Positions 1,148 to 34,097 of a stretch of 64,000 bases of DNA are shown here, one piece after another. Within the stretch, counting starts at the first letter, position 1; every line of letters starts with the position of its first letter. The DNA is taken from positions 134,163 to 198,162 of the forward strand of contig SYIL01000018.1 of the NCBI GenBank assembly GCA_005798825.1, read 5' to 3'. Below the pieces are notes generated by a model. That model had not been told where the DNA came from. It ran no database searches and worked only from the letters and a program-made list of their open reading frames with translations. Origin of the DNA: Bacteroidota bacterium. GTDB taxonomy: Bacteria; Bacteroidota; Bacteroidia; NS11-12g; UBA955. The translations under genes and the position numbers were made by a program.

Positions 1148-1174
1148 ATTTGGTTGTGGTTTTTATTTTTTTAT

Positions 1175-1801: not shown

Positions 1802-1873
1802 TTCCAATGCAGAATTTGACAAACAACATGCCAAAATACCATACCAATACAAAACTATCGAATTAATTTGAAT

Positions 1874-2410: not shown

Positions 2411-3389
2411 TCCCCATTCCAAATTTACGCAATGGGCTCGTGAAATATATCGATATCAATTAAAAAATACTGCTGTTTTTAACAATTGGACTCGACATGT
2501 CCAAGCAGTGACTCCTGATAAAGGGCAATATATTTCCGAAAATGAGACTCTTTTCAATCCCCGTGAATTTACTTTTTTACCCATAGAATTTTTTAAAACC
2601 CATTCTGTACTTAACAGTCAATGCAAGGTTTTAGAAGCAACATTTGAAAGCTCAGGAACACGCAATCACATTCGATCCAAACACATGGTTTACGACCTTT
2701 CAATTTATGAACAAAGTTTTACACAAGGTTTCGAAATGCAGTATGGAAGAATTGAACAATATTGTGTCATTGGGTTATTGCCTTCCTATATAGAGCGAGA
2801 AGGATCTTCGTTGATCTATATGGTAGATAAAATGATACAAAAGGGAAAACCTAAAAGTGGTTTTTACTTAGATCAGTATCACGACCTTGCCAAAATCATC
2901 GACTCTAATGAAAAAAATGAAATCCCTACTCTCCTTTTTGGGGTAGCTTTTTCCTTATTGTCTATGGCAGAAATAATTCAAAACCGCCTATGGACTCGAA
3001 CCATAATAATGGAAACTGGTGGAATGAAAGGTCGAGGAAATGAATTGACCAGGAACGAATTACATAGAATATTGTCTACATCATTTGGGTGCAAAAATAT
3101 CCACTCAGAATATGGAATGACAGAAATGTTAAGCCAAGCTTATGCGCCAAAAGAGGGTATATTCTTTGGCCCACCATGGATGAAAATTGTAATACAAGAC
3201 CCAGTCGATTTCAGAACATTTTTATCGCCAGGAAAAACAGGAAGAATTTGTGTTATAGATCTGGCAAATATTCATAGTTGTTCGTTTATTGCCACAGATG
3301 ATTTGGGACGAGTTTGGGAAGATGGCTCATTTGAAATGTTGGGTCGAATCGATTTTACTGATTTGAGAGGCTGCAACCAGCTAATTTAA
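2367..3389 (+). CDS. LuxE/PaaK-like acyl-protein synthetase (Bacteroidota acyl transferase family)
   Basis: FLPIEFFK, TFESSG, ETGGMKGR, SEYGMTEMLSQAY, DLANIHSCSFIATDDLG, GCNQL. Start uncertain (2334 or 2367). Confidence 0.85.
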   Translation: MQKDLIAIKKNLFAIPHSKFTQWAREIYRYQLKNTAVFNNWTRHVQAVTPDKGQYISENETLFNPREFTFLPIEFFKTHSVLNSQCKVLEATFESSGTRNHIRSKHMVYDLSIYEQSFTQGFEMQYGRIEQYCVIGLLPSYIEREGSSLIYMVDKMIQKGKPKSGFYLDQYHDLAKIIDSNEKNEIPTLLFGVAFSLLSMAEIIQNRLWTRTIIMETGGMKGRGNELTRNELHRILSTSFGCKNIHSEYGMTEMLSQAYAPKEGIFFGPPWMKIVIQDPVDFRTFLSPGKTGRICVIDLANIHSCSFIATDDLGRVWEDGSFEMLGRIDFTDLRGCNQLI

Positions 3390-13671: not shown

Positions 13672-16600
13672 TTACCGCGAATAAATCTGTAGGTATTTCT
13701 GCACGCTTTGTTTGTAATAGGGCTTGAATATTGGCTGAACCGATCGTAGCTGCTCCCTTTCTCTGATCTTCGTTCTCAAAACATCTGCCATTTCTTGGGG
13801 TATTTCGGGCGAATTTTCTTCGGCTCGATTGGATTCACGGCGCACTTCTTGATCTTGATTTCTATCAGCCTTTTCGTTTTCCAACAAGCGTGTCATAATT
13901 TGTTTTTGCCGTTCCATAGACTGTTGATTCAAACGCCCATTAACAATATCTTTTTCCTGTTGATTCATCAATTTTTCAATCTCCAATAGCGAATTAGACA
14001 TCCCCTGTTTACCCTCCTGTCCGAGCTGTTTTCGAAGTTGTTCCACCTGACGGCGAAGCGCCTCTTGCATTAAGGCCATTTTGGCCAAACCTTCACTTAA
14101 CTCTCGCTGGGTGGGTTCTCCAGATTCTCCCGCTTTTTCCGCTTTTCCTCCTGATTGAGATTTGCCAGATTGTGGTGGTTTGACTCGTTTCTGATTTTGT
14201 AATTTTTGTAATTTTTCACCGAGTTCTTTCTGTGCATCTGATAACTTATCACTGGGCTTGGGCTTTCCAGTTTTTCCTGATCCAGCGTTATTTGGGTTGT
14301 TACAACTTTTCTTCCCATCCTGCTTTTGTTGACTTGACATCTTTTGTTGCATATTTTGCAAACTTTCCATCAACATCTCAGCCAGATTATTGAGTCCAGT
14401 CATAACATATTGTTCATGCATGGCCGCTGAAGCAATTCCACGCACTTTCATTTCCTCTAACGCCATGGCCATTTGTGTGTTCACCCTAAGCATCTCTTTG
14501 CTTACAAAATTATTTATCATGGGCTGTCTTTTAGACAAGGCCATCAAACTATCTTCTATAAACAATAAAGACTCTTTTAGCCGCATTTGTTCTTTGTTGA
14601 GAGCAACTAATTTGGGGTTTTCAGGATTTACTTTTTGCATTTCAATAAAAATTGCTTCTTGTCTGTTCGAAGCCTCAATGAGATTTTCCAGCAAAGCCCT
14701 CAGGGTTTGGTAGTCCTCTGCTAATCTTTTGTTCTGTTCCTGCTCAAAATTTTCCTGCATCTCCTGCATTGCTTCTTTCATTTTCTGAGCAGACTTTCGC
14801 ATTTTTTCAGATGCAGCGGGTTTACGGTTATTCTGCAACTCTTGTGAGGCTTTCTGAGACTCGTTGCCAGCCTCCTTGCGCAGTTGTTCTCCCATCTTTA
14901 AATCCATCGGCTTTTCCAATTCTTGATTTTTTTTGCGTATGTCTTGAATGCCCTTTTCTATATCCAGTAAAGCCTCATTCTGCTTTTCTTGTTTCTGTAT
15001 AATGTCTTCAGATGTCTCTTTCCCCTTCTCCTTATCGGTTTGCACAGATAAATTTTCTTCCTTATCTACCCATTCCTGAATCTTTTCCAACTGATTTACC
15101 ATGGCCTCCTCTAGTTCTAATTCCTTTAGCTGCTCCATCAATTTATCCAATTCCTTTGCGGTTTCTTGACCCAACTGACTCAATTTTTGCATCTTTTCAT
15201 TTAACTGTTCTTTGTTTGCCTTTTGCTCTAATAAGGCATTGATCTCGTTTATCAATTTTTGCATTTCGGGATTAGTCAATTGCTTTATACGCTCATTTAA
15301 TGCATCTTTTTTTTTCTCAAGCTCTGCAGAAACGGGCGATAAATTCTTTTTTTGAATGCTAATTTGGGTTTGTTTTTTATCAATTTGTTTGAGGGTTTCC
15401 ACCAGTTTTTGTTGTTCATTAAGCCAGTTTTTGACCTTATTTTCTCCATCCCAATCCATGGCTTGCCTTTGCATGGTTTCCTGCAATTTCGCAGCCTCCT
15501 TTTGAAGTTCCTTCAGTGCCTTTGCAGAATTACCCATACCTTTTAATATAGTAGCCTCTTGTTTTTCTAATTCGCGCAGTACTTCTTTTTCAGAAGTTAC
15601 TTCCAAAGTGCGAATCGAAGTGCGAAACACCTTGCCTCCATGAATTGCATCATTGTCACGCAATACAAATTGGTATTCTAATTCTTCTCCACTTTGCAAA
15701 CCCATTGACAGCAAATCAATCGCGTGCATCACAGGTATATTTATTCCCAATCCATTAAACAATATTTTTTTGGACCACCCACTGTCTTTGGTGCGCAATC
15801 CAATATGTTTGATTCGAGACAAAAACAAAACTTCTTTTAATCCGTAATCATCATTTGCCAGACCCAAAAAATACCAGGTCCCCAATCTTACACTATCGGG
15901 CAAAGCATCTACCTGAATAGATGGATATTCATCGGCTTGTACAACCAAATTTGAGGTAAACGTATCAACTGAAAACCCATTAGGTCCTTTCATTGAAAAC
16001 CGTAAGCATTCGTTAGTTCGGGCGATATACTCAATTTGAGTAGTCTCGCCCTCTTTGGCAAAGAAAATTTTACCCTTATTAGAAGAATTATTTAACTGCC
16101 AAGCTTTCACATTCAAACCACGTAATTCCCAGACCAAACGAGTGCCTTCTGGAACCAATAGTGTTTCGGGATTTGTCATTTCGGCGTTCACAAAACCAGT
16201 ATATGAGGGGAAATACGCCTTCACATTTAAGGATTGCCACCGGGGTTTTTTGATTGCCGTTAAGACATATCCACCCAGTGAGAATCCCATAGATTCCAAT
16301 CTAAAGGGGGTGTTTTCATGAACAGATTCAAATACATATTGAAAATGGTCGGCATCCAATTTTCTCGCGCGAATGGATTGATTGTCCAAAACAACATCCA
16401 CAAAATCTGGGACCATAAGGCCAGAGGCCTTGATGTCTAAAACAAAACGGGAATCCTGATCTACAATTAACTTTGACTGATCGACAAAAAGCTGAAAAGG
16501 GGCTTCTTGGATATATTCTTTTTGATAATTAAAAACACGTTTAGCACCCAACAAAATTCCTGAAGATTGAGAAAGAACAAGGGCTACTAAAAACAAAAAA

Positions 16601-17079
16601 ACCACGCTCAAACGAAGTATCCATTTACGGTGTTTTTTCCAATCTAAAGCCATCAAAAAAGGAAATGCCTTGAGCGATTGTGTTTTCTGCTCAATCCCTG
16701 CCAAAAGCATATTATTGGCTTCCGAATGTTTTGCCATCTCTTCCATTTGCAATAAATTCAGTAACTTGTCTTGAACATCATTAAAATGCATACCTATAAA
16801 GTTTGCAGCCTCTTTGTGTGAAAGTACCCTCCCTACACCCCGCATTTTGAGATACGGAAAAATGACACCGTAAACCAATAAAAAAGAAAATCCAAGACAT
16901 ATAAACCAGAGTAAACAGAATCTTACTGAAACAGAAAACCAAAGATTATTCTCCAATAAAAAGATAAATGCACATAAAAACACCGAAGCTACAAGGGCAA
17001 AAAGGGAACCCCTCAACAACCTATGTCGATAGTATGTATGAATAAATTCATCCAGTTTAACCCGAATTCCCGCCTGCAT
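13672..17079 (-). CDS. DUF4175-like membrane-anchored coiled-coil protein
   Basis: N-terminal TMs, QDKLLNLLQM, DDYGL, long Q/E/K-rich coiled coil, RLLENEKA..QE near the C terminus. Confidence 0.75.
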   Translation of the reverse strand: MQAGIRVKLDEFIHTYYRHRLLRGSLFALVASVFLCAFIFLLENNLWFSVSVRFCLLWFICLGFSFLLVYGVIFPYLKMRGVGRVLSHKEAANFIGMHFNDVQDKLLNLLQMEEMAKHSEANNMLLAGIEQKTQSLKAFPFLMALDWKKHRKWILRLSVVFLFLVALVLSQSSGILLGAKRVFNYQKEYIQEAPFQLFVDQSKLIVDQDSRFVLDIKASGLMVPDFVDVVLDNQSIRARKLDADHFQYVFESVHENTPFRLESMGFSLGGYVLTAIKKPRWQSLNVKAYFPSYTGFVNAEMTNPETLLVPEGTRLVWELRGLNVKAWQLNNSSNKGKIFFAKEGETTQIEYIARTNECLRFSMKGPNGFSVDTFTSNLVVQADEYPSIQVDALPDSVRLGTWYFLGLANDDYGLKEVLFLSRIKHIGLRTKDSGWSKKILFNGLGINIPVMHAIDLLSMGLQSGEELEYQFVLRDNDAIHGGKVFRTSIRTLEVTSEKEVLRELEKQEATILKGMGNSAKALKELQKEAAKLQETMQRQAMDWDGENKVKNWLNEQQKLVETLKQIDKKQTQISIQKKNLSPVSAELEKKKDALNERIKQLTNPEMQKLINEINALLEQKANKEQLNEKMQKLSQLGQETAKELDKLMEQLKELELEEAMVNQLEKIQEWVDKEENLSVQTDKEKGKETSEDIIQKQEKQNEALLDIEKGIQDIRKKNQELEKPMDLKMGEQLRKEAGNESQKASQELQNNRKPAASEKMRKSAQKMKEAMQEMQENFEQEQNKRLAEDYQTLRALLENLIEASNRQEAIFIEMQKVNPENPKLVALNKEQMRLKESLLFIEDSLMALSKRQPMINNFVSKEMLRVNTQMAMALEEMKVRGIASAAMHEQYVMTGLNNLAEMLMESLQNMQQKMSSQQKQDGKKSCNNPNNAGSGKTGKPKPSDKLSDAQKELGEKLQKLQNQKRVKPPQSGKSQSGGKAEKAGESGEPTQRELSEGLAKMALMQEALRRQVEQLRKQLGQEGKQGMSNSLLEIEKLMNQQEKDIVNGRLNQQSMERQKQIMTRLLENEKADRNQDQEVRRESNRAEENSPEIPQEMADVLRTKIREREQLRSVQPIFKPYYKQSVQKYLQIYSR

Positions 17080-17418: not shown

Positions 17419-18132
17419 TTATCGCAATAAATTATCTAACAATATAGCAGAAGCCAAAGCCGCATTGAGTGATTCTGCACCCCCATTCCCTGGAATGGTA
17501 ATGCGCTTTGTTACCAGTGATTGTGCTTCTAATCGAATTCCATGAGACTCACTTCCCACTATGAGCATACTTTTTCCTGTGATTTTTTGATTGTGAATGG
17601 AACCACCATCCAAAAAAGCACCATACACGGTTCGCCCTTCAACCACTTGGTTCAATTTAGTATACACAACCGAAACCCGCAAAAATGATCCCATACTTGC
17701 ATTCAAACACTTCGGATTATACATATCTACACAATCTTCAGAGGCAATTACCTGGTGTAAACCAAACCAATCTGCCAAACGAATAATAGAACCCATATTG
17801 CCTGGATCACTGATTCCATCCAATGCCAGTATGAAGTTAACCTCATGATTCAGGGCATGGTATACTGGCATACGCACCAAAGCAAGCACACCAGGAGCCG
17901 TATCAAACGCTGTCAACTTTTTATTCTCATTTGCAGACATGATTTCCAAGGGATAGCTGGGTTCATACCGATTTACAAATTCCTTGGTGGCCCAAATACC
18001 ATCAATTTCCCAGTCACTGTGGAATACTTCCTCCACCATCTTTCGGCCCTCGATAACAAATTGGCCATATTTTTGCCTATACTTTGGCATTCGAAGAGAA
18101 GCGATATGCTTAATTTGAGGTGTAGATGACAT
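17419..18132 (-). CDS. TrmH/SpoU family RNA methyltransferase
   Basis: DGISDPGNMGSIIRLADWFG, GSESHGI, AESLNAALA. Confidence 0.92.
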   Translation of the reverse strand: MSSTPQIKHIASLRMPKYRQKYGQFVIEGRKMVEEVFHSDWEIDGIWATKEFVNRYEPSYPLEIMSANENKKLTAFDTAPGVLALVRMPVYHALNHEVNFILALDGISDPGNMGSIIRLADWFGLHQVIASEDCVDMYNPKCLNASMGSFLRVSVVYTKLNQVVEGRTVYGAFLDGGSIHNQKITGKSMLIVGSESHGIRLEAQSLVTKRITIPGNGGAESLNAALASAILLDNLLR

Positions 18133-20510
18133 ATTACAAGGGCAAATATCACTTTTTTAAGGGTAGAATTTTTACTGTGGTATTGATGCTATTTTTTTTT
18201 CAATCTTGTGGTGTTAAAAAAATTATTCCCGAGCATCAATATTTATTAAAGAAAAATAGTGTTTCTGCGGAAGGTAATAAGCCTGACCAAGGATTGTTGA
18301 ACTTACAAATATTGCATCAACCCAATAAGAGGGTATTGTTCAACAAACTGCCTGTTTATCTGTGGGCTTACGCACTGGGAACCATCAAGAATTCGAAAAA
18401 TCCACTGCAGCATGGGTATAGGTCTACACTGCCAAGCGATTCTATCGCGTGGCGAAGAAAACTGCGCAAAAAATGGGGTGAACCACCTGTTTTTGTTGAT
18501 AGCTCACTGGCAAGAATCTCTGCTGAAAATATCAATAATTACCTTTTCAATCGAGGTTATTTTGATGCCAAAACTGATTTTAGCATCCTATACAGAAATC
18601 GAAAAGCCAAGATTTTATATACAGTAAAACAGGGCATCCCTTACCGCCTTAACTCTTTTTTTCGCCAGCCAGCAGATTCTACACTCAATTCACTGATCGA
18701 TACATTGGTTGCAGAAAAAAATGCATTTCGCCTATGGTGGGAAATCGATCTTGACGAATTAAACTCTGCAAAAGAAAAACTCTCTTTGTCATTGCGTGAT
18801 CGCGGTTATTTCGATGCCAATCCCGATCTATTTCACTATGAAATTGATACACTCCATGACAAAAAAGAAGGCGCAGTTTTCTTAAAAATCGACAACCCAA
18901 TCAATCAAAAAACACTCAAAAGATACCGATACGGACCCGTTTTCTTAACCATCGAATGTTCAGAAATATACCAAACCAACGCATATCCCCAATCCGTAAC
19001 TTTGGGTGGCAATTACTTAACAATCAATCACTATCCTATCAAACCCAGCGTATTAGACAAAGTAATTTTAATCGATTCCGGAAACTGGGTAAATCAGTCT
19101 GTAACCAATCTAACTTATACCGGTCTTGTCGATATGGCATTGTTCTCCTATATCGATATGCACCAGGAAGTGGATTCTGTAAATGGGCAAATTATCACAA
19201 GAATCAAAGCGAAAGCATTGCCAAGGATTTATACCCAAATTGAACCACAAGGATTATATTCTCCCAACGGAAGTTCTGGCACGAATATGCAAACTGGAAG
19301 TCAACGAAGTTTCGGATTGGCAGGTATTGCATCTTTATCAAACAGAAATATTATGGGCAATGGAGAAAGTATTAAAATTAGTTCGATTACAAGCAATGAA
19401 GCCATTTTTAAAAGAGATAAATTGGGGAATTTTGCCTACGCCCTTCAACAGGGTTTTAATCTTACCCTATCCATGCCAAACTTTAGGTTATTGGAAAAAA
19501 TTAATGTGAAAAATCAATATCACAGACAAAATACCGTTTTTTCGTTGAGTTATCAATACGAAAAAAATCCCAATTTTATTCGTACTTCTCTTCCTGCTTC
19601 TATTTCATTTCAATTTATTCACAAAGCATTCAGTTGGTACTATACTCCCCTTGAAATTAGTTTTAATCGCAATAAAATTAGTCCGACCTTCTTGGGAAAT
19701 CTAGCCAAATTTGACCAGGATTTTGTAAAACGCGTTTTTACAGACCAAATGATTACCGCTTCAAAAATTGGCGGCATCTATACAAATAACCGAAACAATA
19801 TCGGACAAACCTATTTCTTTGGTCGAATAGGGATTGAAACATCAGGGAATTTACACCGCTTGGTTCGGTCCTTATACGAGCCCAATTTTAAGCCTGATAG
19901 CGCCTATCAATTCTTGGGCGTGAATTATTTCCAGTATACCAAAATAGAGTCTGAAATTCGAATTCGTCGATCCATTGACAATTTAAACAGCTTGGCATTT
20001 CGCGCAAATTTTGGCATGGCCATTCCCTACGGCAACAGCACAATTATTCCCTATGATAAACGCTATTTTATAGGAGGTAGTACAAGTTTAAGGGGTTGGC
20101 GCCCCCGGGGGTTGGGGCCTGGAAACACACCGGATACCGCTGCATCAATTATTGACAGATCGGGGGAATTTACCATAGAAACCAACCTGGAATACCGCTT
20201 CACTCTCATAAAAAACTTAATTGAAAGTGCCTTGTTTCTAGATGCGGGCAATATCTGGAATCTTAGCAAAGCAGGATCATCTTCTTCCGGATTTGGGGTA
20301 TTAACATCCAAAAATTTCCTCCAAGAACTGGCTTTAAACACAGGAATAGGGTTTCGATTTGACTTGAGTTTATTTATTTTTCGCGTAGATTGGGGTTTTC
20401 CCATACGAGACCCACGCAAATCCCAGTCTAAGCGTTGGGTGATGACAGGAAGTGTGAAAGATTATTTTCAAAAAACTGCAGTTGCCATCGGGATAGGCTA
20501 TCCATTCTAA
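18126..20510 (+). CDS. tamL: TamL, lipidated Omp85/BamA-TamA family translocation and assembly module protein
   Basis: Lipobox-like FQSC, GEPPV, POTRA-like region, FIGGSTSLRGWRPRGLGPG, RVDWGFP, C-terminal GIGYPF; adjacent to the TrmH-family gene. Start uncertain. Confidence 0.8.
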   Translation: MTYYKGKYHFFKGRIFTVVLMLFFFQSCGVKKIIPEHQYLLKKNSVSAEGNKPDQGLLNLQILHQPNKRVLFNKLPVYLWAYALGTIKNSKNPLQHGYRSTLPSDSIAWRRKLRKKWGEPPVFVDSSLARISAENINNYLFNRGYFDAKTDFSILYRNRKAKILYTVKQGIPYRLNSFFRQPADSTLNSLIDTLVAEKNAFRLWWEIDLDELNSAKEKLSLSLRDRGYFDANPDLFHYEIDTLHDKKEGAVFLKIDNPINQKTLKRYRYGPVFLTIECSEIYQTNAYPQSVTLGGNYLTINHYPIKPSVLDKVILIDSGNWVNQSVTNLTYTGLVDMALFSYIDMHQEVDSVNGQIITRIKAKALPRIYTQIEPQGLYSPNGSSGTNMQTGSQRSFGLAGIASLSNRNIMGNGESIKISSITSNEAIFKRDKLGNFAYALQQGFNLTLSMPNFRLLEKINVKNQYHRQNTVFSLSYQYEKNPNFIRTSLPASISFQFIHKAFSWYYTPLEISFNRNKISPTFLGNLAKFDQDFVKRVFTDQMITASKIGGIYTNNRNNIGQTYFFGRIGIETSGNLHRLVRSLYEPNFKPDSAYQFLGVNYFQYTKIESEIRIRRSIDNLNSLAFRANFGMAIPYGNSTIIPYDKRYFIGGSTSLRGWRPRGLGPGNTPDTAASIIDRSGEFTIETNLEYRFTLIKNLIESALFLDAGNIWNLSKAGSSSSGFGVLTSKNFLQELALNTGIGFRFDLSLFIFRVDWGFPIRDPRKSQSKRWVMTGSVKDYFQKTAVAIGIGYPF

Positions 20511-24061: not shown

Positions 24062-25639
24062 ATGGACGATAAAACGAACTACACCGGAGGTAAAAGGAAA
24101 GTTAATATTTCGCAAATTATCGGCCCTGACCCCAGTGGCAGAATGCCACCAAATACGCGAGAATTAGAAGAAGCTGTTTTGGGTGCAATGATGCTGGAGC
24201 GAGATAAAATACACTCCGTTATAGACATATTAACTGAAAAACATTTTTACGCACCTGAAAATAGTATCGTATTCAAAGCCATTAAAAAACTGTATACTGA
24301 TGCTGGCGCCATCGATTTACTCACTGTAGCCAATGAACTTCGCAACAGTGCCGAATTGGATATAATCGGTGGCCCTTATTATTTAGCACAACTGACAAAC
24401 CGTGTTTCTTCTGCAGCCAATCTCGACTTCCATTCCCGAATCCTAACCCAAAAATTTGTTCAACGTGAGTTAATTCGTGTTTCAGGTGAAATATCCGTTG
24501 AAGCTTACGATGATTCGGTCGATTCATTTGAAATGCTCGATGGCTGTGAGCGGAAATTATACGAAATTAAAAATGTTGGTCTTAAGCAAACATTTCGAGG
24601 AATTAGCGATTTGATTACCCAAGCCATGAAAGACCTCGAAGCACGGCAAAATACCGATACCGATGGAATTACGGGTGTGGCTTCAGGTTTTTCAGATCTA
24701 GACCGCATAACCAGTGGTTGGCAACCCAGTGATTTGATTATCATTGCCGCAAGACCTGGAATGGGTAAAACTGCGTTTGCATCCTCTGTGATGAGAAATG
24801 CCGCAGTAGATTTTGGTAAAAAAGTCATGATATTTTCGTTGGAGATGGCCGATGTTCAGTTGGTGAATCGGCTCATCAGCGGTGAAAGTGAAATAGAAAG
24901 TGAAAAAATCAAAAAAAGCAATTTAACAGAGCAAGAATGGGCCAGATTACATGAAAAAACTGTTCGCTTGAGCGCAGCTAATATATTTATAGACGATACT
25001 CCCCAGCTGAGCATATTTGACTTAAATGCAAAATGTCGGCGCATACATTCACAAACTGGCTTGGATTTGGTGGTGGTCGATTACCTCCAACTCTTGCGCC
25101 ATGAAACGAAAGGCCAAACAAACCGTGAACAAGAAATTGCATTTATTTCACGGGCATTGAAAGGCTTGGCAAAAGAGCTACGGATTCCAATAATTGCCCT
25201 TGCTCAATTGAGCAGAGAGGTTGAAAAACGGGGGAACAAACGTCCACAACTTTCCGATTTGCGCGAATCAGGGTCTATAGAACAAGATGCAGACATGGTT
25301 TTATTCTTATACCGTGAAGATTATTACCTAAAAATGGGGATGCAAGACCAAGGTCAGCAGTCAACTGATGATGCCAACGACAATAATATTGTGGGGCTGA
25401 CAGAAATAATCATCGGTAAAAACCGGCATGGTGAACAAGGATCTGCTTTTGTAAAGTTTGAAGGCCAATTTACAAAATTTGTTGATCTTGAACCCCAAGA
25501 TAGGGTTCAACTGAGCATGAAAAATAACAGCGATTACAATAGATCAAGACAACAAAGTGTAACCGTCCAGAGCAAAATGAACAACAACAATTTGGATGAC
25601 AATTCAGGAATGACACCCAATATTTTAGAAGATTTCTAG
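24062..25639 (+). CDS. dnaB: Replicative DNA helicase (no intein)
   Basis: LEEAVLGAMML, AARPGMGKT, DYLQL, LAQLSR, DLRESGSIEQDAD, KNRHG. Confidence 0.97.
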   Translation: MDDKTNYTGGKRKVNISQIIGPDPSGRMPPNTRELEEAVLGAMMLERDKIHSVIDILTEKHFYAPENSIVFKAIKKLYTDAGAIDLLTVANELRNSAELDIIGGPYYLAQLTNRVSSAANLDFHSRILTQKFVQRELIRVSGEISVEAYDDSVDSFEMLDGCERKLYEIKNVGLKQTFRGISDLITQAMKDLEARQNTDTDGITGVASGFSDLDRITSGWQPSDLIIIAARPGMGKTAFASSVMRNAAVDFGKKVMIFSLEMADVQLVNRLISGESEIESEKIKKSNLTEQEWARLHEKTVRLSAANIFIDDTPQLSIFDLNAKCRRIHSQTGLDLVVVDYLQLLRHETKGQTNREQEIAFISRALKGLAKELRIPIIALAQLSREVEKRGNKRPQLSDLRESGSIEQDADMVLFLYREDYYLKMGMQDQGQQSTDDANDNNIVGLTEIIIGKNRHGEQGSAFVKFEGQFTKFVDLEPQDRVQLSMKNNSDYNRSRQQSVTVQSKMNNNNLDDNSGMTPNILEDF

Positions 25640-27150
25640 TTTTGGCTCTTTGGGGGCAGCTTCAAAGCAAATACTTGGTTTACCCCACTGGCGGTAAAAC
25701 CTTCTATGGAAATAGTACCTGTTGTTGATTTTAAATACGTTACCACATCCTTAGCCGAATACACAGGCTCGTTATTGATAAATACAATAACAAATCCACT
25801 GCTTATACCAACATCTTTAAAAATGCCTTTGCCTATATCTTTTACTTTTACTCCATATTTTATGCCCAAAGCCATTTTCTCTTCACGCGAAGCATTTACC
25901 AAATTCATCCCCAAATATGCTTCGGTTTCATCTGCGCTTGCCATGTCTACTTTGGCTTTTCCATCGGTATTCAATAAAATTGTTTCAATATCAAGAAGCG
26001 TTTTTTTGCGGCGAATCGTAATTATTACTTTGTCTCCTGGGCGGTATTTCCCTACTTCTTCTTGGAGGCGACTAGACGTGTTCACTTCTGTTCCTGCTAC
26101 CTTAAGAATTACATCACCTTGTTTAATACCAGATTTTTCTGCTGCACCCCCTTGTATTAGATCGGCAACAAAAACCCCTTTCAAATCTGACAATCCATAC
26201 TCCAATGCAAGCTCCTGTGAAATTTCACGAATTGAAACCCCCAATAAAGCTCTTTGTACCTTGCCAAAATTCATGATGTCATTTACAACTTTCTTCAGCA
26301 GATTTACTGGAATAGCAAAGCCATAGCCAGCATAAGAACCTGTTTCTGAAGCGATGGCCGTATTGATCCCAATCAGTTCACCCGCAACGTTTACTAGTGC
26401 ACCACCACTATTTCCAGGATTTATAGCAGCATCTGTTTGAATAAAATTCTCGATAGCATAGTTATTGCCTTTCGATCGAATGAGGTCTATATTTCGACCC
26501 ATTGCACTTACAATTCCTAAGGTAACGGTACTATTGAGATTTAATGGGTTGCCCACGGCAATGACCCATTGACCTACTTTAACTGCATCTGAATTTCCCA
26601 ATTTCAAAAACGGTAAGGATTTTTCAGGAATGCGCAACAGGGCAATATCGGTATTGGGGTCGGTACCCACCAATTCTGCTTCATAAGATCGTTTATCATT
26701 TAATACAATAACTATCTTAGAAGCACCTTCTATAACATGATTGTTTGTAACTATAAATCCATCCTCGCTGAGGATCACACCAGATCCACTGGCTTCTCGT
26801 GGACTAGGCCTTTGTTGTTCGAATCCTGGACCATAAAAGAATTCGAAAGGATCCATAGGCATCTGTTGATTGCGACCATTATTTCCCATTGCACTTCCGG
26901 AATTTTTTATGGTGGATATTATATGAACAACTGCTGGATTGGCAATTTCACAAACCCCCGTAAAATCAAAAGCGGGTGTGGAACTTAAACTGGCATACCT
27001 TGCCTGTTGCCCAACTGCATTCTGTTTCTCTTCAATTGACACGACTTGCTTGGGAACAAGGGAAAAATATGCCCACAAACTGGCTACGCCACCCAAAAGT
27101 CCTGCTAAAAATAATGGCAATAATTTCTTGTTTTCTACAAATAACTTCAT
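25636..27150 (-). CDS. htrA: DegP/HtrA (Do family) serine protease with two PDZ domains
   Basis: Catalytic triad TNNHV, TDIALL, GNSGG; QTDAAINPG; two PDZ-like regions. Confidence 0.93.
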   Translation of the reverse strand: MKLFVENKKLLPLFLAGLLGGVASLWAYFSLVPKQVVSIEEKQNAVGQQARYASLSSTPAFDFTGVCEIANPAVVHIISTIKNSGSAMGNNGRNQQMPMDPFEFFYGPGFEQQRPSPREASGSGVILSEDGFIVTNNHVIEGASKIVIVLNDKRSYEAELVGTDPNTDIALLRIPEKSLPFLKLGNSDAVKVGQWVIAVGNPLNLNSTVTLGIVSAMGRNIDLIRSKGNNYAIENFIQTDAAINPGNSGGALVNVAGELIGINTAIASETGSYAGYGFAIPVNLLKKVVNDIMNFGKVQRALLGVSIREISQELALEYGLSDLKGVFVADLIQGGAAEKSGIKQGDVILKVAGTEVNTSSRLQEEVGKYRPGDKVIITIRRKKTLLDIETILLNTDGKAKVDMASADETEAYLGMNLVNASREEKMALGIKYGVKVKDIGKGIFKDVGISSGFVIVFINNEPVYSAKDVVTYLKSTTGTISIEGFTASGVNQVFALKLPPKSQN

Positions 27151-27264
27151 GCACTAATATACATCAAATTTTATACCGAATTTTACGCATAAAAGATTCA
27201 TCTTCGTTTACTTTGTATTCGAAAAAAATCATTTTTATCTACAAAGGTATTTTTTACTGTATTA

Positions 27265-28671
27265 ATGGCAGCCACAACCGTATCCTATTCCAACGTTCTT
27301 AAACGCATTAAAGAAGCAGACCGGGAGGTACTCGTCGAATTATACCTCAAAAACGAAGTTTCTATTTCAAATTTTATACGCAAACAAGGTGGAACCAAAA
27401 ATCATGCAAAAGAAATACTGCAACAAACCTTAGTGCTTTTATGGCAAAATTCGCGCAGAACGCCATTTGAATTACCTGCAAAATTAGATCGATATTTACT
27501 GTCCCTTTGCAAAGAAATCTGGTCAAAAAGCCTGGCGAATCCTGTCACTATTCCAGTTGAGGAAATATCCTTTGGAGAGAACACAATTGCTTTTGATCCC
27601 AACAAAACGATTCCCCTAGGGCAAAAATCAGTAGATGAGTTTCCATCGTATTCGACGCAAGAGAAAAAAGATTTTACTGTCTTTGAACGTGCATTTGATT
27701 TGATGGAAGATCAATCTAGAAATATTTTGATTATGTATTATTTTGATAGGTTTGACTTAGACACAATTGCCAAGGCAAACGGACTCAAGAATGCACCTGA
27801 AGCCTCAGCGAAAAAAAAAGAGTGCTTGGAACAACTTCAAGCCCTCACAGTTGAAAACCACACCCCTACTGATGGCGATAGAATATGGCTAAACGATGAG
27901 CGCATTGGACAATATATAGATGGTGAGATGTCCCAAGAGCAAGTCCATGATTTCTTGATGGAGATTCGTGAACATTCTGGTGTATTGCAGCATATACAAA
28001 TTCAACAATTTATTATCGAAGGAATCCAATATGATGGTGCAAAAGAATTGACCGATTTTATAGCGAACCGCGTATTAGAAGATAAGGAAAATAGACTTGG
28101 GAAACGCAATATTTGGAACTCAATCCTAGGCATTTCAATTCTTTTGCTAATTGGTTTCTTTCTGTCAACCTTTTACAATAAAAAATCCTTATCAGATCGA
28201 TCTCTCGAAGCCAACAACCAAAACAGTCAAGAAAAAATAATTGAAACCCAACAGCGTAAAAAAAGTTCCACACCATTTTTAGAAAAAGCACCGTTTGGAT
28301 TGGATTCACTAAAAACCCAAAAAATGGATATTATTACCATACAAATTGGGAGTGATTCTTTGCCCGAAGTACATTCTGACTCATTTGCCTTTTCCAAACC
28401 GGTCGTTCCATTTATTCGCAATTTTTCTGTTCGTTTAACCGAATCTAAAGGTCCTTCTAATCCCACAATTTATACTGATTCACTCTATGAAAATTCGATT
28501 GCTCTTACCCTTCTTAATATAGGTTCCGACAATATTTTAATTTTTTTTATGAAAGATAAATATTATATTCAATTGGGTCAAGATTTCTACGAATTATCAA
28601 CGTTGGCTAATACCATATCACCCTTGACCCCTATTTCAAACCAAACCCTGTTAAAACAGCTAAAACAATGA
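27265..28671 (+). CDS. ECF sigma-70 factor fused to an anti-sigma-like membrane module
   Basis: aa ~11-90 resemble sigma region 2; aa ~140-194 resemble region 4 (RNILIMYYF..TIAKANGLKNAPEASAKKKECLEQL); aa ~213-265 IGQYIDGEMS resemble an anti-sigma N terminus; TM at aa ~284-304; then an extracytoplasmic tail. Confidence 0.7.
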   Translation: MAATTVSYSNVLKRIKEADREVLVELYLKNEVSISNFIRKQGGTKNHAKEILQQTLVLLWQNSRRTPFELPAKLDRYLLSLCKEIWSKSLANPVTIPVEEISFGENTIAFDPNKTIPLGQKSVDEFPSYSTQEKKDFTVFERAFDLMEDQSRNILIMYYFDRFDLDTIAKANGLKNAPEASAKKKECLEQLQALTVENHTPTDGDRIWLNDERIGQYIDGEMSQEQVHDFLMEIREHSGVLQHIQIQQFIIEGIQYDGAKELTDFIANRVLEDKENRLGKRNIWNSILGISILLLIGFFLSTFYNKKSLSDRSLEANNQNSQEKIIETQQRKKSSTPFLEKAPFGLDSLKTQKMDIITIQIGSDSLPEVHSDSFAFSKPVVPFIRNFSVRLTESKGPSNPTIYTDSLYENSIALTLLNIGSDNILIFFMKDKYYIQLGQDFYELSTLANTISPLTPISNQTLLKQLKQ

Positions 28672-29564
28672 ATTTACCTTTCGTAAAATACCATGGGACG
28701 GGCAACGATTTCGTTTTAATAGACAATCGATCTGGAATCTGGGAATATTTCATCGAGAATGCACCTGAACCGTCCGGAAAGAATTCTTGTCAAAAACTGG
28801 TTTCTCATATATGTAACCGAAACATTGGTATTGGTGCTGATGGATTGATATTGTTGCAAAACAAGGTTGGCTATGATTTTGAAATGATTTATTTCAATAG
28901 CGATGGAAAGACCAGTTCTATGTGTGGAAATGGAGGTCGATGCATTGCCCATTGGTCTTTTTCTTTGGGGCTAGGCGATGGAAAATTACTCAACTTTTGG
29001 GCTGTTGATGGTGAGCATCAAGCATCTAAAAAAGATTCTGTCTGGGCTAAAAACACATTTTCCATTCCCGACAACCAAACAGAAATCATTCAACTTACAA
29101 TGAACGAGGTTAACGATTACAAATTGATTGATACAGATTGTTTTGAAATACATACGGGTTCACCGCATTATGTCCAATTCTCAAAAAAAGACATACATAC
29201 CATCGATTTAATCTCTTGGGCAAAATCTATTTGCAACAAGGAAGTATACAAAGACAAAGGAATCAATGTGAATATGGTTAATATACTTGGAAACCAAAGT
29301 ATACAGATGCGCACCTATGAGCGGGGTGTTGAAAATGAAACCCTGAGCTGTGGAACAGGTGCAGTAGCAGCGGCTTTATCTTTTTCCATTTTGACTCATT
29401 TACAAAACGGTGAAATTGATGTAATCACACGAGGAGGAAAGCTTCGCGTTCATTTTTTTGGGAAGAAAAACACCCAGCCAGAATCGAATACAGCGACTGG
29501 ATTTCACCAAATTTTTTTAGAAGGTCCAGCCCAAAAAGTATTTGAAGGAAGTATTTCCTACTAG
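28668..29564 (+). CDS. dapF: Diaminopimelate epimerase
   Basis: KYHGTGNDF, GIGADG, SMCGNGGRC, TGSPHYV, TYERGVENETLSCGTG. Confidence 0.97.
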   Translation: MNLPFVKYHGTGNDFVLIDNRSGIWEYFIENAPEPSGKNSCQKLVSHICNRNIGIGADGLILLQNKVGYDFEMIYFNSDGKTSSMCGNGGRCIAHWSFSLGLGDGKLLNFWAVDGEHQASKKDSVWAKNTFSIPDNQTEIIQLTMNEVNDYKLIDTDCFEIHTGSPHYVQFSKKDIHTIDLISWAKSICNKEVYKDKGINVNMVNILGNQSIQMRTYERGVENETLSCGTGAVAAALSFSILTHLQNGEIDVITRGGKLRVHFFGKKNTQPESNTATGFHQIFLEGPAQKVFEGSISY

Positions 29565-29610: not shown

Positions 29611-29642
29611 AAAAAAAGGCCGTTCTATGAACGGCTCTTTTT
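29611..29642. terminator. Bidirectional intrinsic terminator
   Basis: A7 run, gccgttc-tat-gaacggc stem, then a T run, between the convergent dapF and T9SS-cargo genes. Confidence 0.75.
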
Positions 29643-29698: not shown

Positions 29699-32317
29699 CT
29701 AGTGAATACATACTTTTACTGTTCCTTGAACGGCGCTGCCTGTTAACCTTGCATAATAATAGCCCTTTGGAAAGGCACCTAAATTTAACTCAAATTCATT
29801 GTCTCCATTTGTAACGGAAACTGTCTTCTGCAGTACAACCTTACCTTGAACATTCAGTAGGGTAAGAATCGCATTTTGAGAAACTTTTGATTGAAACGAC
29901 AGTGTCAGAAAATCTTTTGTAGGGTTGGGGTACGCATTTAGTTTCAAACTAAGATTGTCTTTGGCATTGAAGGTAGAAGTTAACAATGAACGGCTACGAA
30001 AGTATCCCCGACCATGGGTACCAATATACATTGTCATACCTTCCCAGGGCCGCCATTCGTAACCACGAATTTCATAAACAGGGGTTCGGCACATGCCATC
30101 ATTCGCCTCCTCCCAATTTACACCGCCGTCTTCTGTGGTAAATATACCCAACTCCGTAGCCAAAATGATGCGCTTATTATTGTCTACGTCAATGACAGCA
30201 TCATATACTGGAATCAAAGGCAGGGTACCGGTGATATTTTTCCATACTGGCGCTGATGACAACGCATTGTATGTTTCATAGACATAGGACGTATTTCCAT
30301 ATCCACCCAAAGTTGCAACTACATGGTTTGCATTCATTTGATCTACATTAACCGACGAAATTGAACGGCCACTTGCTCCAGAAGGGGTTATGTTTGATAG
30401 TTTAATGGGCTTGGGAACAACCAATACAATCGGATTTGCAGCCAAAGTAAACGTGGCAGCATTAATGCTGTCCAAACGGAAAATTCTTCCACTCTTGCAA
30501 ACAAAGAGATTATTGCCATCCGCAGAGTAGTCCATTTCTTTAATGTCATCATCGCCAAGTCCACTGGCAAGCATATACCAACTTACAGGCTCAGAAAAAT
30601 CAGTAGGGTTATTAGCCATCCAAATTTCGGAATTCTTGGCTAGAAATAAACGGGAAATTTTGGCAGAAGACTCCCACAATGTATAGGTTGTATTAAAATC
30701 TGTTTTTGTTGTACCGGGCTGCCGATCATCCCAAAAAGTAGAAGTAGATTGCCCATTATTTCCACTTCTGGCGACCACTCCGTAATATGTTGAAACAAAT
30801 ACTGTTTTGGGACTAAACCGGGAAAACTCTACATCAAAACCATCGCCCCCATATATTTCTATAGCATTCTTAGATGGCTTTCCCCAAAAAGAATTGCCAC
30901 TGTAGTTAATGAGTTGCGTGCCATTATCTTGTGAACCACCAACAATATGGCCTAGTTCATTGGCTGCAACATTGTATAATTGCAGGGTAACAAGTCCCCG
31001 ATTGATAGGTGTCCACTCAGTTCCACCATCTTTGCTTCTAAATAATCCACCATCAGAGCCAACAATAATTGTTGGTGGAGTTGTGCGGGTATCCCATTCA
31101 ATCACATGTTTATCGGCATGAATATAAGTGGTATTTGATGGGGCATCGTAGGTACTGGCTTTACCGAGAAATCCGTTCACATTATCCCATGTGGCCAGTG
31201 TGACCCCACCCATTATTACACTTTCTTTGTTGGAAGGATTTACACTAATAACATTGTCATAATACCCCTGACGATTACCCCCAAAAATATCGTTAAAGGA
31301 AGTTTTAACAGCCAATGTATTCCATGTAGTACCCCCATCAGTGGTTCTATACAATCCTCCGAAACTTCCATTACCACTAGATCCCAACAAATAAACATAA
31401 TTGGGGTCTGAAGGTGAAATGCCAATTGAGGTTACACCACCTGATACGGGTGCCCCAGTGGGCTTCATTGCACCCGTAATCATTTTTAAGACCGTACCAT
31501 TGTTTGAGCTCGCCCATAAAACACCATTGACATCAATTCGCAAATGTTTGATAGAACCAGTGTACAATTTCTTCTGCACTGTTCCGTTGGCGGTGAATTC
31601 ATAAATACCGTCGGCGGTAGCTGTGTATATTTTATCTTCGGTTGGATGAGCGACCATGCTATTACATACCGTAAAACTCGCAGATTTTGTATTCGTCATT
31701 TGAGAAAATGATACCCCTCTACTATCAGAACTTTTAAAAAGTCCAGAACCCAGAAAGGCAGGACTGCCGCTGCGGGTTCCGGTCAAATTTACGAATCCAC
31801 CCTCTCCCGTACCATAATAAATAATACCTGTAATCGATTGCGCTATACAGGTAACATTGAGATTTTCTTGCTTATCGTTGATAGGGTACCAACTCTGTCC
31901 TTGGGTAGATGATCTGAATAATCCTCCAGCAACACCACCTGCAAACCACAGGTTAATTGAATCGCGGTGCATCAAAAAAGCGCGAACTCGTCCCCCAACA
32001 TTGTCTGGCCCCATGCCTTCCCATTTAACGGGCTTCTGGGCGCGACGTTTTAATTTTAAAGCATCTGCTTGGGCAATAGCGGCATTTACCCATTCAGGTT
32101 CAACCGTTCCAGTAATTTCATTTAAACGCATACTGTAAAAAGAACGAATCGCCCCCTCTATCGATTTATTTTCATCATTATGATCTGTGCGATTGAATTT
32201 ATTGGGCGATATGCTTGGCATTTCCGAAACCCAAAAAAACATCCCGAAAGACAAAATACAAGAAATAAATAGCAGGCGGAGTAATGTTATTTTCATAGTG
32301 GTTTTAGTGAGTTTCAA
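29699..32317 (-). CDS. T9SS-secreted BNR/Sortilin(VPS10)-like beta-propeller protein
   Basis: GPDNVGGRVRA, repeated SxDGGxxW Asp-boxes, HADKH, GTHGRG; type A CTD (AYPNPT..NVQGKVV..GYYYARL). Alternative start 32296. Confidence 0.85.
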   Translation of the reverse strand: MKLTKTTMKITLLRLLFISCILSFGMFFWVSEMPSISPNKFNRTDHNDENKSIEGAIRSFYSMRLNEITGTVEPEWVNAAIAQADALKLKRRAQKPVKWEGMGPDNVGGRVRAFLMHRDSINLWFAGGVAGGLFRSSTQGQSWYPINDKQENLNVTCIAQSITGIIYYGTGEGGFVNLTGTRSGSPAFLGSGLFKSSDSRGVSFSQMTNTKSASFTVCNSMVAHPTEDKIYTATADGIYEFTANGTVQKKLYTGSIKHLRIDVNGVLWASSNNGTVLKMITGAMKPTGAPVSGGVTSIGISPSDPNYVYLLGSSGNGSFGGLYRTTDGGTTWNTLAVKTSFNDIFGGNRQGYYDNVISVNPSNKESVIMGGVTLATWDNVNGFLGKASTYDAPSNTTYIHADKHVIEWDTRTTPPTIIVGSDGGLFRSKDGGTEWTPINRGLVTLQLYNVAANELGHIVGGSQDNGTQLINYSGNSFWGKPSKNAIEIYGGDGFDVEFSRFSPKTVFVSTYYGVVARSGNNGQSTSTFWDDRQPGTTKTDFNTTYTLWESSAKISRLFLAKNSEIWMANNPTDFSEPVSWYMLASGLGDDDIKEMDYSADGNNLFVCKSGRIFRLDSINAATFTLAANPIVLVVPKPIKLSNITPSGASGRSISSVNVDQMNANHVVATLGGYGNTSYVYETYNALSSAPVWKNITGTLPLIPVYDAVIDVDNNKRIILATELGIFTTEDGGVNWEEANDGMCRTPVYEIRGYEWRPWEGMTMYIGTHGRGYFRSRSLLTSTFNAKDNLSLKLNAYPNPTKDFLTLSFQSKVSQNAILTLLNVQGKVVLQKTVSVTNGDNEFELNLGAFPKGYYYARLTGSAVQGTVKVCIH

Positions 32318-33350: not shown

Positions 33351-34097
33351 TTAGGGCTTCAAACTCGACTCGAATCCCATTACAAAGTTAACGAAAACTG
33401 CTGGGAAGAAATTCCGATTCATTTCGTTTCTATACCAAATCGGCAATTTTTTTGCGAATTGATCACAAGAAATACCCACTGAGAGTGTATTGGTAATATT
33501 CTTATAATTACCCCATTCTGCCTGTAGGCTTAAGGTAAAACCCAGTCCAGGAAAAAAATTTCCTTTTCCAATATTTTTGGTAAATGGCGCATTACCACCT
33601 ATTAAGTTTACATCGTGAACCGCTGGATTGTATGCAACAGCGGCATATCTATCGCCAAATGCAGCTGGTTGGTAGAGCCAAACAGCCATCGGCCAAGAGT
33701 AGGCCATGGGAATTTGCAAGGACGTATTTAGCTGTAAAGCAATTTCAGACTGACTTTTACGATCGCCAATGGGAATAATTCTACCAAACTGTAGCCTACT
33801 GCACAATGTATGTGAAACTTTTTCAATGACAAATAAACGGCTTGCAGGTAAACGTTCATTCAAAACCCTCACTTCGCGTGGATCTTTCATCAAGCCAAAC
33901 CACAATGCCGTCCATTTATAGGGCATAATAAATCTGGTGGTTTGGAAATTTTTCTGGTTGACAATTCCAATGTCATACCCAAAATGTCTAATCTGCAATC
34001 CAAAGCCTGTTTTCGACTTGGATTGCGACCATCCAATCGAAGTGGATAAGCCTATCAAAAAACAGACAACCCAAGGAATGAAATGGATTTTTTTCAC
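33351..34097 (-). CDS. Hypothetical exported, probably outer-membrane, protein
   Basis: Signal peptide and amphipathic beta-strand pattern; TATCTTTG promoter element at 34102-34109. Confidence 0.6.
   Translation of the reverse strand: MKKIHFIPWVVCFLIGLSTSIGWSQSKSKTGFGLQIRHFGYDIGIVNQKNFQTTRFIMPYKWTALWFGLMKDPREVRVLNERLPASRLFVIEKVSHTLCSRLQFGRIIPIGDRKSQSEIALQLNTSLQIPMAYSWPMAVWLYQPAAFGDRYAAVAYNPAVHDVNLIGGNAPFTKNIGKGNFFPGLGFTLSLQAEWGNYKNITNTLSVGISCDQFAKKLPIWYRNEMNRNFFPAVFVNFVMGFESSLKP

Follow-up and report, generated by a model that had tools for sequence, protein, structure and literature searches.

Can a sigma factor of the extracytoplasmic function (ECF) type and its presumed membrane-bound inhibitor be encoded as one polypeptide, and what becomes of the sigma factor once they are? 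This question is raised by a gene in a 64,000-nucleotide stretch of DNA from a Bacteroidota bacterium (assembly GCA_005798825.1, contig SYIL01000018.1, positions 134,163 to 198,162 of the forward strand), which we call the window; positions below are counted from its first letter. A preliminary description of this DNA had read the gene as the fusion of an ECF sigma gene with the separate gene that normally follows it. The comparison with relatives bore this out. All 16 related scanned loci, and a distant one besides, have the two-gene form, and the derivation of the fused gene from an ECF sigma gene and a separate downstream membrane-protein gene is strongly supported.

The fused gene is a single uninterrupted open reading frame (ORF) that begins with ATG, as had been described. 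Its parts were delimited by alignment and by an AlphaFold2 (AF2) model, for which the predicted local distance difference test score (pLDDT) is given.

27265..28671, forward strand: whole fused ORF, 468 amino acids (aa) plus stop
27286..27537, forward strand, aa 8-91: sigma region 2 with diverged core-binding and -10 recognition residues (AF2 helices, pLDDT 78-91; alignment)
27538..27675, forward strand, aa 92-137: linker between sigma2 and sigma4, disordered (pLDDT 21-33; alignment)
27676..27849, forward strand, aa 138-195: sigma region 4, helix-turn-helix (AF2, pLDDT 87-92; alignment)
27850..27888, forward strand, aa 196-208: fusion junction, of low confidence in AF2, standing where the split form has its stop codon, spacer and start codon
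27889..28104, forward strand, aa 209-280: cytoplasmic helical block, putative non-zinc anti-sigma domain (AF2, pLDDT ~80-87; partner alignment)
28111..28179, forward strand, aa 283-305: single transmembrane (TM) helix (21-23 hydrophobic residues, helical in AF2, position kept in all partners)
28180..28416, forward strand, aa 306-384: extracytoplasmic low-complexity linker (pLDDT 29-38; alignment gaps)
28417..28668, forward strand, aa 385-468: C-terminal beta-rich domain with terminal helix, presumed sensor (seven strands and a helix, pLDDT 66-86)

The AF2 model was built on a 33-row alignment (A10) consisting of 3 fused, 21 partner and 9 sigma rows, and reached a mean pLDDT of 68 and a predicted template modelling score (pTM) of 0.50. 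With more than nine sigma-only rows, MAFFT put the N-termini of the partners onto the sigma N-terminus, which neither extra anchors nor window fragments remedied; a run on three sequences only gave a pLDDT of 35 and was unusable. In the 33-row model both sigma helical domains were confident (pLDDT about 85-92), and the junction linker at aa 196-208 (...ENHTPTDGDRIW) was of low confidence. The helices from aa 203/212 to 280 continue into the TM segment at aa 283-305 (IWNSILGISILLLIGFFLSTFYN), aa 311-382 are disordered, and the beta-rich domain with its terminal helix occupies aa 386-467. The segment boundaries proposed earlier agreed with these helices, with the TM segment and with the outer tail, which is 164 aa long and ends in the small beta domain. 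Compared with the split orthologues, the linker between sigma2 and sigma4 was 17 aa longer and the extracytoplasmic linker was far shorter.

The fused protein recurs. We observed 16 distinct full-length sequences on about 28 contigs of independent NCBI, ENA and Logan assemblies, and they formed two clusters at 90% identity, seven sequences of 468 aa and nine of 481 aa. The 481-aa sister-lineage protein, from a Flavobacteriaceae metagenome-assembled genome (MAG) and annotated as a sigma-70 family sigma factor, is 72-74% identical to the window protein and shows the same layout, with 13 extra residues exactly at the junction and in frame. By word-indexed searching, nothing came to light beyond a 99%-identical protein and the 481-aa sister, and the result was alike with the single protein and with an alignment of 14 partner sequences as the query. 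Because of this recurrence, an artefact or fresh pseudogene is very unlikely, and the single ORF is a genuine, inherited gene.

Subsequently, an exhaustive profile search of 1.84 billion protein representatives gave 1095 matches, of which the best 150 listed are considered here. Apart from the fused cluster, each of these 150 covers one half of the protein and never both. The sigma half matched proteins of about 190 aa (187-194 aa) over aa ~4-203, the best being P0003 (E 9e-41). Proteins of about 300-400 aa, P0004 (E 6e-36) and about 20 others, matched the partner half over aa ~209-330 and over the last ~90 residues. The comparison of fused with split orthologues that the preliminary description had suggested thus gave split proteins and, among the best 150, no full-length match beyond the fused cluster.

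A scan of one genome per GTDB species identified 17 loci, all in freshwater Bacteroidota/Flavobacteriales MAGs. In 16 of the 17 the genes are split, the sigma gene (~190 aa) being followed after 3, 5 or 14 nucleotides (nt) by a partner gene that encodes a single-pass membrane protein of 326-370 aa. Among the loci compared, the fused form was found only in the window, in the sister locus L001 and in L002 from Lake Baikal, the latter two carrying the 481-aa gene. The common neighbourhood runs ClpB (-), DnaB, HtrA (-), divergent from it sigma, partner and DapF, then a protein subject to type IX secretion system (T9SS) sorting (-), LipA (-), a 248-aa ORF (-) and MraZ. Even a distant locus (L019, on a 1.47-Mb contig, its partner P0029 being ~24% identical) is split in the same arrangement, with htrA divergent from sigma, partner, dapF, the T9SS protein and lipA in that order; over the 16 loci and L019 taken together, sigma and partner genes are separated by 3-15 nt. 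As the neighbourhood is the same in all loci, the split pairs are positional orthologues of the fused gene, and the halves of the fused protein align end to end with the split sigma and the split partner.

The junction itself retains the trace of the event. In eight split loci both genes lie in the same frame (...NKP TAA NNN ATG GAA ATC AAC GAC), so that a stop-to-sense change would suffice to join them. The fused loci read ATA/ATC TGG CTx rAC GAT at this place. Codon 207 of the window gene (27883-27885), which aligns with the ATG of the free-standing partner, is ATA, and ATA or ATC stands there in the fused genes. What is left of the sigma tail can still be recognised in L001 and L002, where PFSLNHFP stands against DFYLNKP. 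The fusion appears to be independent and recent, and confined to the lineage of the window and its sister within an otherwise two-gene family.

The hidden Markov model scan that had been proposed as a check on the sigma half gave a divided answer. Pfam found no sigma domain in the fused protein, and the NCBIfam model TIGR02937 (sigma70-ECF) matched aa 24-192 with 27.4 bits (E 2e-6), under its cut-off of 42.9. The best subfamily matches of NCBIfam (Sig70_bacteroi1, SigY and the PG0214 family) all lay far under their cut-offs, Sig70_bacteroi1 reaching 28.9 bits against a cut-off of 126. The split sigma orthologues, on the other side, pass both Pfam Sigma70_r2 (53.9 bits vs 24) and TIGR02937 (64.8 vs 42.9). 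Hence the N-terminal half is, by descent, an ECF sigma factor. When the AF2 model was compared with the PDB by Foldseek, the top matches were ECF sigma factors at a probability of 0.99-1.0 (SigH, SigL, RpoE-NepR, AlgU-MucA, sigmaE-RseA, SigW-RsiW and BldN-RsbN). In the model the sigma half also has the ECF layout, only sigma2 and sigma4 joined by a linker, and neither region 1.1 nor region 3.

The region-2 motif that had been called diverged is indeed so. In the alignment, HAKEILQQ of the fused protein stands at regions 2.1-2.2 against DAxDLLQ(D/E) of the split proteins (DAxD(L/I)LQ(D/E) among relatives). The other replacements are RY for TY in region 2, CKEIWSK for AKN(L/T)WLK in regions 2.3-2.4, LANPVT for LDKRKR in the basic patch after region 2.4, SRNIL for C(R/K)xxL in region 4, and ASAKKKEC for VAKAKK(H/Y)QC in the recognition helix of region 4. 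The residues replaced are conserved in the split relatives compared, the distant L019 among them. Three of the motifs, DAxDLLQD, AKNLW and LDKRKR, do not vary at all among the nearest split orthologues and are mostly kept in the wider family sampled, again with L019. In ECF sigma factors, conserved residues of region 2.1-2.4 (DAxDLxQ(D/E), the Asn of the IAxN helix and the basic residues after it) serve core binding and -10 recognition.

We also attempted to identify the downstream half, which is annotated as 'hypothetical protein' where it is free-standing. Its helical block was aligned with 21 free-standing partner proteins. These start M-x-(I/L)-N-D-P-R-I-E-x-Y-L-N-G-E-(M/L)-S, the second or third residue aligning with aa 207-209 of the window protein. 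The cytoplasmic helical domain comprises about 75 residues, with no cysteine in aa 209-280 and no zinc motif. AF2 places helices at aa 212-218 and 224-234 and a long helix from aa 238 into the TM segment; the invariant Gly253/Gly258 could mark the break between helix 3 and helix 4. This arrangement is compatible with a class I anti-sigma domain (ASDI), which is defined as a three-helix bundle plus a fourth helix (PMC7406223), and is not diagnostic of it. Putative membrane anti-sigma factors are usually recognised by their position after an ECF sigma gene, a start of the xxYLxGE(L/M)S type and a single-pass layout (PMC7826278). The downstream half adjoins an ECF sigma gene, consists of ~75 helical residues, one TM helix and an outer domain, and has such a start; from this context and architecture we infer that it is a putative anti-sigma factor. 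A weak hint comes from the model, in which the sigma moiety superimposes at a lower root mean square deviation on anti-sigma-bound forms (AlgU/MucA, sigmaE/RseA, SigW/RsiW and BldN/RsbN; 12-15 A) than on forms bound to RNA polymerase (23-25 A).

The C-terminal domain is conserved in all partners and had no sequence match in Pfam or the PDB, the PDB profile search giving antibody chains at E>0.1. The helical block, being free of cysteine, has no ZAS motif Hx3Cx2C; Pfam scans of the fused protein gave neither a FecR nor a zf-HC2 match, and no receptor gene adjoins the locus. The best PDB profile match of the helical block was a Nif11-domain protein of 77 aa (structure 9zn4, E 1e-4, 25 bits), and one partner had a Pfam Nif11 match at E 0.11; this similarity is probably compositional. 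In the putative fourth helix of the block, ELKDFIANR has become ELTDFIANR (aa 260-266, 28042-28062), alongside the change to HAKEILQQ in the sigma half (aa 47-54, 27403-27426). In class I anti-sigma complexes the fourth helix contacts sigma region 2.1-2.2; the lysine-to-threonine exchange and the loss of acidic residues in that region may therefore be compensatory, as a single event that carries no statistics.

The consequence of the fusion was seen in the ratio of nonsynonymous to synonymous substitution rates (dN/dS), calculated by the Nei-Gojobori method for the fused pair (window and L001) and for split lineages. In the fused pair the ratio was 0.53-0.60 for sigma2 and 0.31 for sigma4, whereas the split lineages gave 0.02-0.17 and 0.01-0.12, respectively. 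For the sigma half taken together, values of 0.3-0.6 in the fused form compare with 0.03-0.10 for the split orthologues. The helical block gave 0.20-0.25 in the fused pair against 0.04-0.26 in split lineages, and the C-terminal domain 0.19-0.20 against 0.11-0.23 (0.52 in one distant pair). Among the neighbours in the fused pair, HtrA showed 0.09, DnaB 0.08 and DapF 0.20. The helical block and the C-terminal domain of the fused pair were distinguishable from neutral evolution at P<0.001, and sigma4 at P 0.026. At equal genome divergence (DnaB 93-94% and T9SS protein 92% identical), the sigma moiety was 77% identical in the fused pair and 90% in a split pair; for the C-terminal domain the values were 83% and 52%. 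Amino-acid polymorphism within the clusters was too sparse to compare the constraint on the two halves.

The sigma moiety has thus evolved under much weaker constraint since the fusion. Because family-invariant residues have changed as well, its output has probably been weakened or re-specified. The earlier caution that it is diverged and might not act as a normal sigma factor fits the rates and the residue losses. The G+C content is 40.3-40.5% in the fused lineage and 44.5-48.6% in split relatives (L004-L016); the lower G+C and the shorter periplasmic linker would be consistent with genome streamlining.

The DNA around the fused gene bears on what the module may control. The features concerned are the following.

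25636..27150, reverse strand: htrA/degP-family serine protease gene, 504 aa, with a trypsin-like domain and PDZ (Pfam Trypsin_2 6e-37, PDZ_2 4e-16)
27163..27217, no strand: conserved non-coding blocks, resembling an ECF-type promoter (alignment of 17 intergenic regions)
28668..29564, forward strand: dapF, diaminopimelate epimerase (Pfam DAP_epimerase 7e-33)
29618..29636, no strand: terminator-like hairpin, bidirectional, at the end of both the operon and the convergent T9SS-substrate gene

Wherever a locus extends so far, as the distant L019 also does, htrA is divergent from the sigma gene and next to it. The intergenic region measures 114 bp in the window and 114-116 bp among the loci. Its flanking blocks are nearly invariant across loci whose proteins are ~40% identical, and the spacer between them is variable (window, L001-L016 and L018). 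A conserved block ATCAAAtTTTrTACCGAATtTTAACGCA is followed by 15-16 non-conserved nt and then by TTCGTTTAmTTTGTA. Read as a promoter, this would be a -35 element TTTT(A)ACG, a non-conserved spacer of 17-18 nt and a -10 element TTCGTTTA; AAC-N17-CGT is the classical shape of an ECF promoter. CGT -10 boxes have been taken as ECF promoters in Flavobacterium psychrophilum (PMC9723704). The element is quasi-palindromic (AACG-N15-CGTT); with CGTT as the reverse complement of AACG, it has the same reading in the direction of htrA, so that it can be read towards both genes. Judged from its sequence, it could be a bidirectional ECF promoter or the site of a dimeric regulator.

The copy in the window lies at 27184-27210, and the three fused loci all have 1 nt more in the spacer than the split loci. 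Each locus holds a single copy of the motif, save L011 with an additional match; besides that match it was absent elsewhere in the window and in the ~10-kb flanks, so no further regulon members appeared there. A scan with the sigma-70 consensus gave no more matches than shuffled sequence, this consensus not covering Bacteroidota promoters.

On the other side, the start of dapF overlaps the stop of the fused gene (ATGA, 28668-28671). The same 4-nt overlap joins partner and dapF in most split loci that reach dapF; in L015 the naive ORF call begins further upstream, and in L019 partner and dapF abut. No terminator-like hairpin was found downstream of the fused gene before 29618. Because of the overlap, we take the fused gene and dapF to form one operon, putatively translationally coupled. 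DapF makes a peptidoglycan precursor. As an observation apart, the DapF ORF varies at its C-terminus or in its stop position, having 298 aa here, 349 aa in the sister (L001, 9443-10492) and 255-305 aa in other relatives. The conserved ECF-type promoter, the divergent htrA and the coupling to dapF point to a module that is most likely an autoregulated cell-envelope stress circuit, with HtrA and DapF putatively among its outputs. DegS is the site-1 protease for RseA, and DegP is a regulon member; by analogy, HtrA could be a candidate regulon member or could act as a site-1 protease, as DegS does for RseA.

How, then, might such a protein have come about and work? The ancestral state would be a two-gene operon in which an ECF sigma gene was directly followed by that of a single-pass membrane protein, the putative anti-sigma factor. 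Loss of the sigma stop codon and the change of the partner ATG to ATA/ATC would have given one polypeptide with the order sigma2, sigma4, a flexible linker of 12-25 aa, the cytoplasmic helical domain, the TM helix and the periplasmic sensor domain. The sigma moiety would be tethered at the inner membrane beside its inhibitor and be inhibited in cis. By analogy with IutY and ECF48/52/53, the fused sigma factors described below, it would reach RNA polymerase only once regulated proteolysis had cut away the TM part and the periplasmic part. An inherited fusion that yields such a tethered, cis-inhibited and proteolytically released sigma factor within an autoregulated envelope-stress circuit is the explanation that we favour, with moderate confidence.

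Several observations weigh against this explanation. The sigma half falls below the curated ECF thresholds of Pfam and NCBIfam. Among the residues lost are Asp (now His) and Asp/Glu (now Gln) in regions 2.1-2.2, the Asn of AKN (now Glu), KRKR (now ANPVT), and a Lys (now Ser) and a Gln (now Glu) in the recognition helix of region 4. In the fused pair, sigma2 is not distinguishable from neutral (16.5 nonsynonymous and 8.5 synonymous differences, P 0.13). Alone among the loci compared, the window lacks one A of the putative -35 AAC, 27184-27187 reading TTTT-ACG against TTTTAACG in all 16 others. For the helical block, neither Pfam nor NCBIfam gave an anti-sigma match in the window protein or the partners scanned; 13 of 14 partners were without a Pfam anti-sigma match, and the remaining one had a zf-HC2 match at E 0.055. 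A PDB profile search with the block found no anti-sigma factor, and the TM-scores of the model to sigma/anti-sigma complexes were only 0.42-0.48.

Much of this would be expected if the sigma half were a decaying relic, selection acting mainly on the membrane part and the sigma sequence being kept for its promoter and start codon and delivering no active sigma factor. The protein may then act in trans on another sigma factor or have a sigma-independent role. Such a relic would account for raised dN/dS in sigma2 and sigma4 beside a still constrained helical block and C-terminal domain, for the contrast of P 0.13 in sigma2 with P<0.001 in those two, for the low sigma identity of the fused pair at equal genome divergence, for the loss of family-invariant DNA- and core-contact residues, and for the damaged -35 element. 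The intact frame is no evidence for a working sigma factor, because a fused gene could not yield its 3' half if the 5' half went out of frame. However, sigma4 is under detectable constraint, AF2 folds both sigma domains confidently, and the analysis counts few substitutions, about 25 for each domain. Furthermore, the derived residues HAKEILQQ, KEIW, SRNIL and KKKEC are identical in two fused lineages that differ at 26% of positions, and a constrained anti-sigma-like domain is hard to explain beside a dead sigma factor. Since the derived residues are shared by both fused lineages and sigma4 is constrained, we favour, without much conviction, a sigma factor that is still functional in an altered form, perhaps being re-specified jointly with its promoter, over one in decay; the relic is a possible explanation that we regard as doubtful. 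It is improbable that the downstream half is not an inhibitor and is instead, for example, a membrane sensor needed for the activity or stability of the sigma factor, so that the fusion would be a one-component membrane-bound transcription activator. The helical block has no detectable homology to any anti-sigma family, the fusion has been tolerated and inherited, and pro-sigma activity is described for some FecR-type proteins. C-terminal extensions that activate instead of inhibiting are also on record (PMC8999054). On the other hand, membrane anti-sigma factors are usually marked by a position directly after an ECF sigma gene, a helical domain of this size, a single TM helix and an N-terminal start of the xxYLxGE(L/M)S kind (PMC7406223, PMC7826278), and a sigma factor kept at the membrane has difficulty in joining RNA polymerase at most promoters. 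Finally, an artefact of assembly or sequencing, or a pseudogene recently derived from a two-gene operon, would have only the metagenome-assembled source in its favour as an account of the ORF. We rejected it as next to impossible on the recurrence described above, with the frame kept throughout; two 74%-identical lineages share the fusion with an in-frame difference of 13 aa at the junction, and the old ATG is now ATA or ATC with no stop left.

The favoured explanation, a tethered and released sigma factor, can be carried further, tentatively. The arrangement of htrA divergent from sigma, partner and dapF might be an envelope-stress circuit, undescribed and widely conserved, of Flavobacteriales-like Bacteroidota, whose anti-sigma family and periplasmic sensor domain would both be new, the window catching it just after a stop-loss fusion freed the sigma factor from constraint. 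If true, it would be a snapshot of an ECF sigma factor becoming a one-component membrane regulator with a new specificity, or a pseudo-sigma that scaffolds the sensor.

Other features of the window are recorded here. The T9SS neighbour at 29699-32317 (-) encodes 872 aa with a C-terminal sorting domain and weak Sortilin/BNR-like repeats, and is constant in the loci that reach there, L019 included. The 248-aa ORF at 33351-34097 (-), between lipA and mraZ, had no Pfam match, and its synteny is kept in the loci extending that far. At E 1e-5, Pfam matched neither an 1135-aa ORF at 13672-17079 (-) nor two shorter, mutually overlapping ORFs at 1874-2422 (-) and 2334-3389 (+). Near one end of the window, a tandem pair of OmpH/Skp-like chaperone genes occupies 635-1852 (-), and 18126-20510 holds an Omp85/BamA-like gene. 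Genes of envelope biogenesis are plentiful in the window (Skp, BamA, NlpC/P60, HtrA, DapF and, from 34363, the dcw cluster).

Finally, we compared the fused protein with known systems. It holds a sigma domain, a TM segment and an extracytoplasmic domain in one polypeptide and has split relatives, as sigma/anti-sigma hybrids do. Such a hybrid is IutY of Pseudomonas putida (ECF243), which belongs to an iron cell-surface-signalling system and is activated, as shown experimentally, by Prc and then RseP, which release a ~23-kDa sigma fragment (PMC5411451). Both proteins are single polypeptides with an N-terminal cytosolic ECF sigma, one TM segment and a periplasmic domain of an anti-sigma type, putatively so in the window protein, and the relatives of both are two-gene pairs. 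IutY differs in being of the FecI/FecR type, from Proteobacteria, and coupled to a TonB-dependent receptor. The sigma family of the window protein is one of Bacteroidota, unrelated to that of IutY, in an htrA/dapF context with no receptor gene nearby; the protein shows no similarity to FecR in its periplasmic domain and carries a full cytoplasmic helical domain of ~75 aa between sigma and TM helix.

For the actinobacterial groups ECF48/52/53, of which SCO4117 of Streptomyces coelicolor is an example, self-inhibition and proteolytic activation are predicted (PMC8999054, PMC5826349). They share with the window protein the order of sigma, anti-sigma-like cytoplasmic domain, TM helix or helices and extracytoplasmic extension. 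Unlike it, they are confined to Actinobacteria and have a ZAS zinc finger (Hx3Cx2C; ECF52/53) and proline-rich and carbohydrate-binding regions; the window protein has a helical domain without cysteine and a small, unclassified outer beta domain. With the canonical pairs sigmaE-RseA, SigW-RsiW and AlgU-MucA, the split orthologues share the layout, the AAC-N17-CGT promoter and an adjacent gene for an HtrA-family protease. The partner, however, has no sequence similarity to RseA, RsiW, MucA or any Pfam anti-sigma family, and in the window the halves are covalently joined.

The window protein therefore resembles IutY and ECF48/52/53 by architecture and is not homologous to them. The expectation that it would represent an undescribed system did not hold, as IutY (experimentally) and ECF48/52/53 (by prediction) precede it (PMC5411451, PMC8999054). 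The single-chain, membrane-tethered sigma/anti-sigma architecture is already known, and the window holds an independent new instance of it, not a new system. Repeated gene fusion is regarded as the source of fused sigma/anti-sigma proteins and of C-terminal extensions (PMC7671368). The practical significance of this instance is modest, and no new principle emerges from it. Its two-gene form points to an uncharacterised partner family of freshwater Bacteroidota, covered by no Pfam or NCBIfam model and linked to HtrA and DapF. To our knowledge, most fused groups described so far are old and have no split orthologues in the same genomic position. Here the states before and after the fusion stand at one chromosomal position in close relatives, so the mutational path can be read directly; its consequence can also be measured, the sigma half evolving several-fold faster while the sensor half stays constrained, which makes the locus a convenient natural test case for the effect of tethering on an ECF sigma factor.

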